DNA of 64,000 bases from an uncultured Actinomycetota bacterium (lineage in GTDB: Bacteria; Actinomycetota; Actinomycetes; Actinomycetales; CAVURS01), in contig CAWCHK010000014.1 of the NCBI GenBank assembly GCA_963795385.1, forward strand, positions 362,113-426,112, given 5' to 3'. The position numbers were made by a program, and so were the translations under genes. Numbering within the stretch: the stretch's first letter is position 1; the number at the start of each line of letters is the position of its first letter. The notes under the pieces were generated by a model that was not told the DNA's origin, searched no databases, and saw nothing but the letters and a program-made list of their open reading frames with translations. This document shows, in pieces, positions 2,687 to 64,000 of this stretch.

Positions 2687-3000
2687 CGCTCCGCCCCGCG
2701 GTCACGCGCATCGGCCGCCGGCCGCGAGCGGCCCTTGAACATCTCCAGCATCCGGTCGGTCACCACGAAGCCGCCGACCATGTTGACCGTCGCCAGCACG
2801 ATCGCGAGCAGCCCCAGGGTCACCGCGAACCATCCCGAGGCCCGGCCGGTCACGATGATCGCGCCGACCAGGATCACGCCGTGGATCGCGTTGGCCCCGC
2901 TCATCAGCGGCGTGTGCAGGGTGGTGGAGACCTTCGACACGACCTCGAAGCCCACGAAGACCGCGAGCACGAAGAACGTCAGCAGCGTCACGCCGTCCAT
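2683..3000 (-). CDS. pntAB: NAD(P) transhydrogenase alpha subunit part 2 (membrane part)
   Basis: 105 aa, MDGVTLLTFFVLAVFVGFEVVSKVSTTLHTPLMSGANAIHGVILVGA... The ATG at 2998-3000 overlaps the pntAA stop (ATGA). Confidence 0.85.
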   Translation of the reverse strand: MDGVTLLTFFVLAVFVGFEVVSKVSTTLHTPLMSGANAIHGVILVGAIIVTGRASGWFAVTLGLLAIVLATVNMVGGFVVTDRMLEMFKGRSRPAADARDRGAER

Positions 3001-4164
3001 CAGTCGCTCGCCTCCTCGGCCGGAGCAGCGGGCCCGTCCAGCAGCTCGCGGGTCGGTTCGTGCCGTATCGACGCCGTCGTGGACGACGCACGCCCCGTCC
3101 AGCACCTCGTCGGAGAGGTCGACCACCAGCTCGCCGTCGCGCTGCATGAGCGCGAGCAGGTTCGTGCACGTTCTTGGCGTAGAGCCGGCTCGCGTCGAAC
3201 GGCATCGTCGACGCGGCGTCGGCCATCCCCACCAGCACGACACCCGCCACGTCCACGTCCTGCGCCGGCCACCGAGCCCTCGACGTTGCCGCCGCTCTCG
3301 GCGGCCAGGTCCACGACGACCGACCCCGGCCGCATCGCCGCGATCATGTCGCGGGTCACCAGCAGCGGCGCCGCGCCGCCCGGGCACGGCGGCGGTCGTG
3401 ATCAGGACGTCGGACTTCGCGACGTACGGCGCGAGCAGCTCGCGCTGGCGGGCGGCCCGGTCCTCGCCCATCTCCCGGGCGTAGCCGCCGGCGCCCTCCA
3501 GCGACTCCAGCTCGAGCTGGACGAAGGTCGCGCCCATCGACTTGACCTCGTCGGCGCTGGCCGGCCGCACGTCGTACGCCTCCACGACGGCGCCGAGCCG
3601 CTTGGCCGTCGCGATCGCCTGCAGCCCGGCCACGCCGGCGCCGAGGACCAGCACCTTCGCCGGCGGCACCGTGCCGGCGGCGGTCATGAACAGCGGGAAG
3701 AACCGCGGCAGCCGCATCGCCGCCTCGAGCGCGCACCGGTAGCCCGACGACCAGCGCCTGCGAGGTCAGCGCGTCCATCGACTGGGCCCGGGAGATCCGC
3801 GGCACCAGCTCCATCGAGAAGGCGGTGACGCCGGCGTCCCGCAACGCCGCGATGCCGTCCGGCTCGGCCGACGGCGTCAGGAAGCCGATCGTGACCGCGC
3901 CCCGGCGCAGCCGCGCGACCTCGGCCGGCAGCAGCGGGCGCACGTGCAGGACGACGTCGGCGTCGGCCAGCACGTCGCCGTCGCCGCTCTCGACGACCTC
4001 GGCGCCGGCCGCCCGGTAGTCCTCGTCGGCGGCGAGCGCGGAGCGCCCCGGCACCGGCTTCGACGACGACGGTGGCGCCCGCCGCGACGAGGGCGCCGGC
4101 GGTCTCGGGGTCAGTGCCACCCGTCGTTCCCCGGGTCGGACTCGCGAGCAACGGCGACACGCAT
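3000..4164 (-). pseudogene. pntAA: NAD(P) transhydrogenase alpha subunit part 1, frame-disrupted
   Basis: The protein reads MRVAVARESDPG / ERRVALTP / ETAGALVAAGATVVVEAGAG / RSALAADEDY...SQALVVG / YRCALEAAMRLPRFFPLFMTAAGTVPPAKVLVLGAGVAGLQA... / VTRDMIAAMRPGSVVVDLAAESGGNVEG / QDVDVAGVVLVGMADAAS... / NLLALMQRDGELVV... / RHEPTRELLDG. I traced 8 frame switches across all three frames. Length is 1165 nt (1 mod 3). Confidence 0.85.
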
Positions 4165-4201
4165 GGGCCGAACGCTAGTGGTTCGTGCACCCGTTCGGCC
4201 C
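4165..4201 (-). other. 10-bp stem hairpin abutting the pntAA start codon
   Basis: GGGCCGAACG (4165-4174) pairs with CGTTCGGCCC (4192-4201) around a 17-nt loop. On the minus strand the 3' arm ends directly at the ATG (4164). Confidence 0.3.
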
Positions 4202-4260
4202 ACGCCACCCGACCGAGGTATCAGGGTCGCGCGCAGAGTGATCCTCATGTAACGCTGGGC

Positions 4261-61893: not shown

Positions 61894-62713
61894 TCAGCTC
61901 TGGTCAGCAGCGCTCCCTGCCGTTGCCGTCTGGAGGTTCAGGGCCGGGTCGACGTGGCCGGCGGCCGCCGCCCGGCTGCGCCGCGAGCCCTTGGAGAACC
62001 GCTCCGAGACGCCGCGCGAGACGCCGAACCGGGCCAGGGCGGCGAACAGCAGGTCGGCCACCAGGGCGAGCAGCGCCACGAGCAGCGCGCCGGCCGCCAT
62101 CTTGGGGTAGCCGTCGTGCGGGTCGTTCAGCGCCGACAGGCCGTCGATGAGGAACCGGCCCAGCCCACCGAGCGACACGTACGCCGCGACGGTCGATGTC
62201 GCGATGACCTGGAGGGTCGCGCTGCGGACGCCCGAGATGATCAGCGGCAGCGCGTTCGGCAGCTCGACCCGGAACACGATCTGGCCCGGCGTCATGCCCA
62301 TCCCCGCGGCCGCGTCGCGCACGGCCGGGTCGATGTTCTGCACGCCGGCATAGGTATTGCCGATGATCGGCGGCAACGCCAGCAGCACCAGCACGATCTC
62401 GGCCGGTATCAGGTACGGCAGCGAGCCCGAGCTGTGCACGTGCGGTGAGATCAGCACGACCAGCAGCACCACGAGCCCGAAGGTCGGGATGGCCCGCAGG
62501 GCGTTCGCCGTCCCGGCGACCGCGACCACGCCGCGGCCGGTGTGCCCGATCAGCAGGCCGAGCGGCAGGGCGATGACGATCGCGATCACGACGGCCGACG
62601 AGCGAGTAGAAGATCTGCTCGCGCAGGTGCGTGATGATGCCGTCCGGGCCGTGCCAGTTGGACGGGTCGTTGAGCCAGACCCAGACCTGGCTGAGGCTGA
62701 GGCCGTCGTCCAT
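61894..62713 (-). pseudogene. Opu-type ABC transporter permease, one +1 frameshift
   Basis: MDDGLSLSQVWVWLNDPSNWHGPDGIITHLREQIFYSLV (frame of ORF 61904..63988), then AIVIALPLGLLIGHTGRG...GNTYAGVQNIDPAVRDAAAGMGMTPGQI (ORF 61894..62589). The ATG shares one nt with the upstream stop. Length 820 nt. Confidence 0.85.
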
Positions 62714-63364
62714 CAGGCCTTCACCGCCGTCCGCCACGGGGTCAGCCACCGGCCGACGAGCAGGATCACCGAGTCGAAGGCCAGCGCCAGCAGCACGGCC
62801 AGGATCAGCCCGAGCACGATCGGCACGTTGGTGAAGTTCGAGAACCCGTCCGTGAACAGCCGCCCCAGCTGCGGGACGCCGATGATCGCCGCGACCGAGA
62901 CCAGGCTGACGTTGGACACCGCCGCGACCCGCAGGCCGGCGATGATGACCGGCACCGCCATGGGCAGCTCGACCGCCAGGAACCGTTGCGGGCCGGTGTA
63001 TCCCATCGCCGTCGCGGCGGCCCGCACCTCGAGCGGCACGGCGTTCAGCGCATCGGCCATGACCCGGACCATCAGGGCGACGGTGTAGATGGTCAGGGCC
63101 ACCGCGACGTTGCCGGTCCACAGGATCTGGGTGTGCAGGATGCCCGGGCAGCAGGATGAACAGCGCCAGCGACGGGATCGTGTAGAGCAGCCCGGCGATG
63201 GAGACGATCGGCGGGTAGCTCCACCGGTAGCTCGCCGCCACCCAGCCGATCGGTACGGCGATCAGGAAGCCCAGCACCAGCGGCAGGGCAGCGAGCCAGG
63301 CGTTGTTCCAGAGCCAGTGCAGGATGTCGCTCTGGTGGTCGCGGAAGTAGGTCCAGAGGCTCAT
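62713..63364 (-). pseudogene. Opu-type ABC transporter permease, one +1 frameshift
   Basis: MSLWTYFRDHQSDILHWLWNNAWLAALPLVLGFLIAVPIGWVAASYRWSYPPIVSIAGLLYTIPSLALFILLPG, then (ORF 62713..63102) ALTIYTVALMVRVMADALNAVPLEVRAAATAMGYTGPQRF... Length 652 nt. Confidence 0.85.
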
Positions 63365-63383
63365 CGCCCCCGCGGCCGCGCGC

Positions 63384-64000
63384 TCATCGCGAGACCTCGA
63401 TCTTGTCGAGCACCTCGCGGGCGCTGATGGTGCCCGAGCAGCCGGCCGTCCTCGTCGACCAGTACGCCGCGCCCGGACGGCGAGGACAGCGCCGCATCCA
63501 GGGCCGCGCGCAGGCTGCCGCCCTGGGTGGCCACGGTGCCGCCACGGTTCAGATGGGTCGAGTCGACCTGGGTCGCAACGCCGTTCGCGCCCGGCGGCCG
63601 CCGATCGCGCGTCGTACCAGCCGAGCGGCTTCTTGCCGTCGTCGACCACGAGCACCCAGCCGTCGCGGGCGGCCTTGCCCGCCTCGTCCGGGCTGGCCCC
63701 GATGGTGACGACGGCCTCCGGCGTGGTGGGCAGCTGCCCGGCGCTCTCGAAGCTCAGGGCGCGGTAGCCGCGGTCACGGCCGACGAAGCCGGCCACGAAG
63801 TCGTCGGCCGGGCGGGAGAGCAGCTCGGCCGGGGTCGCGAGCTGGGCCAGGTTGCCGCCGACCCGCAGCACCGCGACCTGGTCACCGAGCTTGACCGCCT
63901 CGTCGATGTCGTGGGTGACGAAGACGATCGTCTTGCCGAGCTCGCCCTGCAGGCGCAGGAACTCGTCCTGCAGCTGGGCCCGGACCACGGGATCGACCGC
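63384..64000 (-). pseudogene. Opu-type ABC transporter ATPase with C-terminal CBS pair (partial, 5' end outside window), frame-disrupted
   Basis: ...VRAQLQDEFLRLQGELGKTIVFVTHDIDEAVKLGDQVAVLRVGGNLAQLATPAELLSRPADDFVAGFVG...VLVVDDGKKPLGWY is in one frame. The remaining CBS region and the ending ...ISAREVLDKIEVSR-stop (63384) are in the others. Confidence 0.8.

Follow-up and report, generated by a model that had tools for sequence, protein, structure and literature searches.

Gene content and frame disruptions of the window

Within the window, by which the entire 64-kb stretch of DNA is meant, genes for c-di-GMP signalling, histidine utilisation, DNA repair and transport are interrupted by single-base changes of the reading frame, which fall into four blocks (3.17-5.33 kb, 14.76-23.71 kb, 56.5-60.5 kb and 62.6 kb to the window end). 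Frame events were located with a self-written protein-versus-DNA dynamic-programming aligner that permits a 1-nt skip (+1) or a 2-nt codon (-1). Intact orthologues served as references, and genes without a reference were traced by a codon-usage Viterbi path. At least 113 disruptions across 21 genes were found, 103 via the aligner and 10 via the Viterbi path only. Events of the +1 type, with one extra base, number 96, as opposed to 17 of the -1 type (binomial p = 1.5e-14). The original prediction of about 20 frame-switched genes with a nearly exclusive +1 bias is borne out, and more strongly than reported, while its roughly 60 switches were too few. No events were detected in the control genes for PEPCK, the AMP-binding ligase, PBP, peptidase M20, two amidohydrolases and three ECF/ABC proteins. 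A Viterbi frame blip at 40934-41004 lies in a Gly/Ser-repeat protein encoded by one intact ORF; it is a false positive and was left out of the count.

The first block (3166..5326) comprises about ten events in pntAA and a membrane GGDEF gene. Alignment of pntAA (3073-4162, minus strand) with P0368 yields five +1 and two -1 events, i.e. about five of seven switches are +1 and not six of eight as traced before. In the membrane GGDEF gene (4504-5720, plus strand) two +1 and one -1 events were placed by the Viterbi path, and Pfam GGDEF is recognized on the corrected translation. The adjoining genes pntAB and pntB (1235-3001) are event-free. Further downstream, the LCP (LytR-CpsA-Psr) gene (8996-10521, plus strand) carries a lone +1 event at 10467 near its 3' end, as determined by alignment with the L081 orthologue.

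The second block (14760..23714) holds 81 events, starting inside the PAS-GGDEF-EAL gene and ending inside the YkuD gene. The PAS-GGDEF-EAL gene (14441..16580, plus strand) contains 20 +1 and two -1 events, the first of them at 14760, close to codon 107. Its indels were placed on intact orthologues from JGI metagenomes; a nucleotide alignment with the related contig L082 was too noisy, both sequences being error-bearing. After correction the protein shows identities of 0.82-0.85 to P0242, P0243 and P0244 in the aligner. The first ~170 codons had been described as clean, which holds for about 105 codons and not beyond: the +1 events at 14760, 14779 and 14807 sum to one extra codon, so that the net frame seems unchanged up to about codon 171.

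The most damaged gene, encoding a BTAD/AAA/TPR-type regulator (16695..19994, plus strand), was absent from the original list, although it harbors 43 events (36 +1 and seven -1) in 3.3 kb. It is followed by five minus-strand genes, all analysed with the aligner: an ABC-2 permease (20113-20945; three +1, two -1), an ABC ATPase (20976-21983; five +1), ogt (22146-22660; four +1 and no -1), alkA (22742-23565; one +1 at 22898) and the YkuD L,D-transpeptidase (23621-24309). In the latter, the single +1 event at 23714 corresponds to residue 199 of 233.

The adjacent 26-kb stretch (23715..49759) is clean according to the Viterbi path, to long intact ORFs with Pfam domains and to the aligner as applied to the ECF genes and the amidohydrolase. 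It comprises a cold-shock gene, an HD-domain gene, clpB, the dnaJ/grpE/dnaK operon, an MFS gene, a histidine kinase, ECF/ABC genes, a TPP riboswitch and an amidohydrolase. Beyond it, at 49760..50714, the Viterbi path alone indicates three isolated changes of phase, all +1. They are located in the MocR gene (49142-50612, minus strand; one or two +1; Pfam GntR and aminotransferase) and in the 5' end of the FAD/BBE oxidase gene (50683-52005, plus strand; one +1; Pfam FAD_binding_4 and BBE).

The third block (56499..60463) contains 15 events, placed by alignment with orthologues from the isolate Angustibacter sp. Root456 (L086) and from contig L083. Affected are hutU (55113-56755, minus strand; one +1 at 56499), hutH (56857-58371, minus strand; seven +1, two -1), an IclR gene (58508-59280, plus strand; two +1, one -1), a small ORF (59313-59531, minus strand; one +1, Viterbi only) and mmuM (59883-60817, plus strand; one +1 at 60463). 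The fourth block (62597..64000, minus strand) continues past the window; it is delineated by the Viterbi path, by tblastn matches of L083 fragments in two frames and by Pfam BPD_transp_1 and CBS. One +1 phase change each occurs, on the minus strand, in Opu permease 2 (~62597), Opu permease 1 (~63148) and the C-terminal CBS part of the Opu ATPase (~63592). All ten genes named as carrying a single disruption are indeed of the +1 type, five by alignment and five by phase only.

Distribution of the events

The division into dense and clean stretches is far from random. The variance-to-mean ratio of the events per kb is 7.1, as compared to a maximum of 1.98 over 20,000 uniform simulations, and the widest event-free gap, between 23714 and 49760, spans 26,046 nt versus a simulated maximum of 7,449. 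Furthermore, alignment puts block edges inside the PAS-GGDEF-EAL and YkuD genes, as predicted, and inside hutU, and within the second block the density decreases in steps, from ~12.6/kb at 14760-19916 to ~5/kb up to 21931 and ~3.4/kb up to 23714, and then to zero. An even spread with equal numbers of +1 and -1 events, the outcome that would have dissolved the pattern, was not seen on systematic alignment. High G+C content as the sole cause was rejected: the dense blocks have a G+C content of 0.76-0.79, but the region at 40-46 kb is equally rich (0.76-0.77) and yet clean.

Sequence context of the extra bases

As had been stated from a few reconstructed sites, many of the extra bases do not extend a homopolymer: 43 of 84 +1 events are not repairable via shortening of a run. 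Only 49% of the insertions could be homopolymer extensions, whereas random base insertion would give 56% in a simulation. In all 26 events with a single best repair the runs including the extra base are at most three bases long. The base that has to be removed is G or C in 76% of the events and A or T in 8%. Indels confined to homopolymer or short tandem repeat tracts, as expected for phase-variable simple-repeat loci, were therefore not found, given the 43 of 84 events that are no run contractions.

The contexts at the shift sites are varied, e.g. GCC[G]CTG, GAG[C]GCC and CTA[G]CGC, and share no common motif. This bears on the idea that the shifts are read through in translation by programmed frameshifting or four-base decoding, for which it might be said that nearly all of them are +1 and that the corrected proteins look fully functional. 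Neither a conserved site nor a motif shared with orthologues was found; no shift is common to the orthologues, which are unshifted at every site. The density reaches 13/kb and includes -1 events, the events follow multi-kb blocks and not genes or codons, and a gene-bearing stretch of 26 kb, with dnaK and clpB among its genes, has none. As judged from the sequences, read-through is already contradicted by the missing site motif and the missing conservation, and its probability appears negligible.

A technical explanation of a different kind would be the merging of two co-occurring strains, with both alleles of a SNP written in tandem and thus one additional base per polymorphic site. Such strains do exist in the same ENA analysis, as contigs L083 and L084 differ by 55 SNPs in 5.8 kb (99.0% identity). 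The resulting ~9 SNPs/kb are near the event density of the dense blocks, and many events are found at the third codon position or a codon boundary, as a C/G pair. However, A/T is involved in 56% of the strain SNPs, but its removal is required in only 8% of the events, as compared to 76% for G/C. About half of the events are compatible with a run having simply grown by one base, an outcome that cannot arise from two different alleles. Finally, 11 of the 43 non-homopolymer events fall between codon positions 1 and 2, which is above expectation for mostly synonymous SNPs, although below the 45% of the random-insertion simulation. Having been tested on these three points (base content, run extension and codon position), tandem alleles are judged unlikely.

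Integrity of the corrected genes

Removal of single bases restores near end-to-end orthologue coverage without stops in the 13 aligned genes, with identities of 0.62-0.91. Codon usage and selection show no sign of decay: GC3 is 0.96-0.99 in the corrected shifted genes and dN/dS is 0.20-0.53, compared with 0.14-0.57 in clean genes. Where 12 orthologues are invariant, the PAS-GGDEF-EAL protein differs at two of 321 columns and the clean PBP at seven of 242; thus no excess of substitutions at invariant residues was found in this comparison. Despite nine shifts, hutH is 0.81 identical to the isolate's hutH, and a partial shift-free copy on L084 reaches 0.80. Relaxed selection, stop codons and deletion bias, which together would mark true pseudogenes, were not found.

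These values weigh against the possibility that the bases are real and that insertion-biased mutation recently inactivated genes of c-di-GMP signalling, histidine utilisation, DNA repair and transport in multi-kb tracts. Against it stands the BTAD regulator, a gene with 43 indels but no nonsense codon, whose corrected product has an identity of 0.79 to the intact 1090-residue L081 orthologue and in which GC3 is unchanged (0.977) and dN/dS normal (0.29). Moreover, substitutions are not in excess, the tracts disregard gene borders, and known bacterial gene decay is deletion-biased.

Related contigs and the deposited record

Five related contigs from the ENA analyses ERZ25039475, ERZ25039504, ERZ25039594 and ERZ25039595 were inspected. 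They are records of 0.26-1.0 Mb, called 'contig_N' under ENA analysis accessions. Together they contain 115 +1 and seven -1 events, in genes different from those hit in the window (+1/-1: L082, 26/1; L085, 32/2; L083, 3/2; L088, 47/2; L089, 7/0), and the G/C-rich, non-homopolymer signature is common to them as well. L088 is riddled in the LCP, AMP-binding ligase and PBP genes, which are clean or, in the case of LCP, carry one event in the window, whereas it is nearly clean in the GGDEF-EAL and ogt genes, both of which are riddled in the window. Among the genes hit in the related contigs and intact in the window are those for a penicillin-binding transpeptidase, for PEPCK and for an acyl-CoA ligase. 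No events were found in contig L084. In the isolate Angustibacter sp. Root456, the two genes tested are without event and genes at the locus are called at full length; the JGI metagenome orthologues are full length, too. A scan of species-representative genomes with the AMP-binding ligase gave a best identity of 72% among the matches listed and no syntenic reference.

The same signature in housekeeping genes that are intact in the window, together with intact orthologues in a cultured relative and in JGI metagenomes, further argues against real inactivation. Since the sister contigs all come from a single clade and a single accession series, clade-specific biology is excluded only indirectly, by the isolate genome and the JGI orthologues. 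In favor of real bases, P0274, the deposited contig's own call of the PAS-GGDEF-EAL gene, is a garbled mixed-frame product without any Pfam domain, and hence the extra bases are in the public record; nor can sequence alone prove any given base to be absent from the DNA. On balance, recent inactivation by insertion is regarded as very improbable. Slightly less credible still is its more specific variant, a previously unrecognized insertion-biased process acting in multi-kb tracts, e.g. patches of error-prone repair synthesis, in an uncultured Angustibacter-like lineage and too recent for other decay to have followed.

Origin of the extra bases

The broken genes are almost certainly poorly corrected stretches of a metagenome-assembled contig and not real gene losses. 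Very probably the defect is a patchy consensus error, in which stretches of several kb were improperly corrected, most likely because they were supported by a single or few long reads or left unpolished. Its preference over true pseudogenes, already proposed in the original prediction, is upheld by full-length restoration of the genes, the missing signs of decay, a distribution by blocks with edges inside genes, the same bias at other loci of the data series and the intact isolate and JGI orthologues.

The contig very probably derives from an uncultured relative of Angustibacter (Kineosporiaceae), with a consensus most likely left uncorrected where one or very few long reads, for instance a single read bridging two better-covered parts, were available or where polishing was omitted. 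Read-level indel errors would have been kept there, at up to ~1.3% of positions and with ~85% of them being one extra base. Errors of this kind track the read layout and not the genes, so that blocks start and stop inside genes and density changes in steps. The underlying cause is inferred to be low depth or a lack of polishing, and the excess of insertions might stem from a consensus model that expects reads to lose bases and, at low depth, resolves conflicts in favor of the longer version.

That indels break up genes in long-read assemblies is documented as an artefact (PMC12007338). Among the errors of Nanopore reads, deletions and mismatches predominate, with about half in homopolymers (PMC8486125), Nanopore assemblies contain mainly false deletions, and ~92% of HiFi errors are homopolymer indels (PMC12007338). 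Counting against an artefact, the error spectrum in the window is unusual: insertions outnumber deletions by about 5:1 and show no link to homopolymers, unlike typical residual errors of Nanopore or HiFi data. An origin in the Microflora Danica Nanopore project (Flye and one round of Medaka; PMC12313526) is suspected and not claimed, the insertion-rich spectrum being atypical of Nanopore.

Consequently, c-di-GMP signalling, histidine utilisation, DNA repair and transport only seem to be lost; the loss is not real and has no biological import. What matters is data quality, as the public 1-Mb contig and at least five related contigs contain multi-kb stretches with up to ~1.3% extra bases. Garbled proteins such as P0274 are already present in large protein collections, where they lead to overestimated numbers of pseudogenes and of seemingly novel proteins. 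The insertion-dominated, non-homopolymer spectrum could help pipeline maintainers to find the faulty step.

Comparison with known systems

Indel errors that fragment genes in assemblies of long reads were reportedly described by Watson and Warr in 2019 and are treated in the Kastor paper (PMC12007338). The window resembles such cases in that single-base indels split intact genes, comparison with orthologues restores them, and gene calls and protein databases are affected, here by P0274. It differs by its insertion bias of 96:17, by the non-homopolymer sites and by the arrangement in blocks of 2-9 kb with up to ~13 events/kb; published Nanopore assemblies have mostly false deletions at homopolymers, and HiFi reads homopolymer indels. 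With pseudogene-rich reductive genomes, such as those of Mycobacterium leprae or of recent host-restricted bacteria, it has in common that many adjoining genes are frameshifted. Real decay proceeds gene by gene and is deletion-biased; stop codons appear, dN/dS is relaxed and codon bias is lost. None of these traits is found in the window. Programmed +1 frameshifting, as in prfB, and phase-variable repeat tracts likewise need a +1 shift for the protein to be read; in those systems each gene has a single conserved site, marked by a defined motif or repeat tract, in contrast to the window with its up to 43 sites per gene, no motif, no conservation and runs of at most three bases.

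Location and distribution of the frame disruptions

The window DNA has a G+C content of 70–79%, and the nearest matches listed for its proteins come from Angustibacter/Kineosporiaceae-like actinobacteria, both uncultured and cultured. A Viterbi path with seven states, for which the codon usage of the window's clean genes served as training data, yielded many same-strand phase changes in the four dense stretches named in the original prediction, most of them +1 advances (one extra base). One false switch, at 40934–41004, was caused by the composition of a Gly/Ser-repeat protein (GSGGSG...) with an intact ORF (40733–41458, minus strand). 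In order to obtain the position and sign of each event independently of composition, intact proteins were aligned to the window with our own aligner, which allows an extra or a missing base. References were taken from syntenic loci of relatives, namely L081/L083, L082, L085, L088 and L089 from ENA ERZ25039594, ERZ25039595, ERZ25039475 and ERZ25039504, L084 (a second contig of ERZ25039594) and L086 (the isolate Angustibacter sp. Root456), complemented by intact orthologues from JGI in the case of PAS-GGDEF-EAL and by cluster representatives in that of pntAA.

At least 113 events were found in 21 genes, 96 of them +1 and 17 -1 (p = 1.5e-14), in line with the predicted excess of extra bases. The original observation of approximately 60 hand-traced switches holds, but the number of events is about twice as high, and the most damaged gene, a BTAD/AAA-type regulator at 16695–19994 with 36 +1 and 7 -1 events, had been left unnamed. 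Successive 2-kb bins contain 0, 4, 6, 0, 0, 1, 0, 19, 24, 22, 10 and 6 events, followed by twelve empty bins and then 1, 2, 0, 0, 7, 7, 1 and 3. The variance/mean ratio per kb is 7.1, compared to a maximum of 1.98 among 20,000 uniform simulations, and the longest event-free gap spans 26,046 nt (simulated maximum 7,449). As expected from the stretches described as clean, none of nine control genes aligned there contains an event. The frameshift-aware protein-to-DNA alignment with orthologues which had been proposed as a check therefore depicts events that are neither uniform nor balanced in sign.

Block edges are intragenic, again as predicted: the second block extends from about codon 107 of PAS-GGDEF-EAL to a point 34 codons short of the L,D-transpeptidase end, and the third starts at codon 89 of hutU. 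Within the second block the density drops stepwise from about 12.6 to 5 and 3.4 per kb. The highest G+C of the window (0.765–0.79) coincides with the densest blocks at 16–20 kb and 58–60 kb; however, the region at 40–46 kb is equally G+C-rich (0.76–0.77) but clean, and base composition does not by itself determine where the blocks lie.

A tRNA-Arg(ACG) (6340–6413) and a tRNA-Ser(GCT) (8621–8713), both on the minus strand on either side of the PEPCK gene and with 90–97% identity to Streptomyces loci, are intact, as is a TPP riboswitch (47370–47492, minus strand) upstream of the ECF-type transporter genes at 44.4–47.3 kb; all three lie within clean stretches. The interval between the penicillin-binding protein (PBP) gene and ogt differs among relatives. 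In the window (14.4–22.1 kb) it harbors the PAS-GGDEF-EAL gene, the BTAD regulator and an ABC-2 transporter, in L081 the regulator and transporter without the GGDEF-EAL gene, and in L082 and L088 the GGDEF-EAL gene only.

Character of the extra bases

For 84 of the +1 events all single-base deletions best restoring the orthologue match were enumerated. All best repairs delete G or C in 76% of the events and A or T in 8%. Shortening of a run fails to explain 43 of the 84 (51%), in agreement with the earlier observation that the extra base is often no homopolymer extension. When insertions were simulated on the window's own clean genes, 56% were run-compatible for random bases drawn from genome composition and 89% for pure duplication of a neighbouring base. 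The observed 49% is close to the former and not to the latter, and the insertions thus resemble random extra bases rather than homopolymer miscounts. Insertions falling between the first and second codon positions are mildly underrepresented (11 of 43 versus 45% simulated).

These properties bear on a collapse of strains, in which both alleles of a SNP would be written in tandem. This is possible in principle, and strains of 99% identity do co-occur in the data: L083 (contig_3305, 8931–14777) and L084 (contig_6217, 5611–11458), from one ENA analysis, share 99.0% identity over 5.8 kb and, judged by sequence, look like co-assembled strains. They differ by 55 SNPs (24 C/G, 23 transitions) and by a single indel, a C5 versus C6 run, which is a classic homopolymer undercall and differs from the bulk of the events. 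The base spectrum and the site distribution of the events speak against such a collapse.

Gene decay and comparison with relatives

Under neutral decay, a gene in which 43 frameshifts were real would be expected to have accumulated numerous substitutions and stop codons too. No in-frame stops were found in the corrected genes aligned to orthologues, and the corrected codons have a GC3 of 0.96–0.99. Against the same orthologues, dN/dS is 0.20–0.53 for shifted and 0.14–0.57 for clean genes, with 0.29 for the regulator carrying 43 events. Columns invariant in 12 orthologues are changed at 2 of 321 positions in PAS-GGDEF-EAL, 0 of 426 in hutU and 7 of 242 in the clean PBP. The damage consists almost purely of single-base indels.

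The sister contigs, compared with intact references, show 26 +1 and 1 -1 events in L082, 32 and 2 in L085, 3 and 2 in L083, 47 and 2 in L088, and 7 and 0 in L089 (115 versus 7 in total), likewise G/C-rich and non-homopolymer. In L088 the LCP, AMP-binding ligase and PBP genes carry 13, 14 and 10 events, compared to 1, 0 and 0 in the window; conversely, GGDEF-EAL and ogt carry 1 and 0 there, compared to 22 and 4. PEPCK is shifted in L082. No events were detected in contig L084 or in two aligned genes of the isolate L086, and in the JGI metagenomes the orthologues of the worst-hit genes have their full length. Since different housekeeping genes are broken in each relative, and always by an extra base, the patchwork is a property of the data set and not of the organisms.

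The absence of decay, of a common site motif and of conservation, together with blocks that disregard gene borders, contradicts both a real loss of genes driven by insertions and a recoding during translation. The frame disruptions are not a biological feature; patchy consensus error, favored from the outset over true pseudogenes, is supported by the lack of decay and by the same signature at other genes of the sister contigs.

Consequences and proposed origin

A public NCBI/ENA protein (P0001), encoded by a single contig of 1,021,597 bp, is 100% identical to the window's PBP at 12.4–14.3 kb. Another, P0274 (467 aa), from a contig of equal length, is the source contig's own gene call and a mixed-frame reading of the PAS-GGDEF-EAL gene (14441–15842), with long nonsense stretches and without a Pfam domain. 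The frame problems are therefore present in the deposited sequence, and frameshift artefacts of this contig have already entered protein databases as seemingly novel proteins. In a search with a pntAA fragment (window 3385–3744), many of the nearest 50%-identity cluster representatives were odd-length fragments of 115–340 aa, the full protein having about 380 aa; similar fragmenting errors may exist in other public assemblies. The disruptions are of value only as a caution about the quality of this contig, of the sister contigs and of the protein predictions derived from either.

The contigs are metagenomic records of 0.26–1.0 Mb titled "contig_N", a naming style of a common long-read assembler. 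The best fit would be multi-kb stretches that draw on a single read or a handful of reads, or that polishing missed, and in which read-level indels persist; block lengths of 2–9 kb and the stepped density would fit read starts and ends. The insertion bias could arise if a consensus model rates missing read bases as the likelier error and keeps the longer version at very low depth, or from a platform with mainly insertion raw errors. Residual-error profiles published for Nanopore and HiFi are deletion-rich, homopolymer-rich or both (PMC8486125, PMC12007338), unlike the insertion bias observed here, which they leave unexplained.
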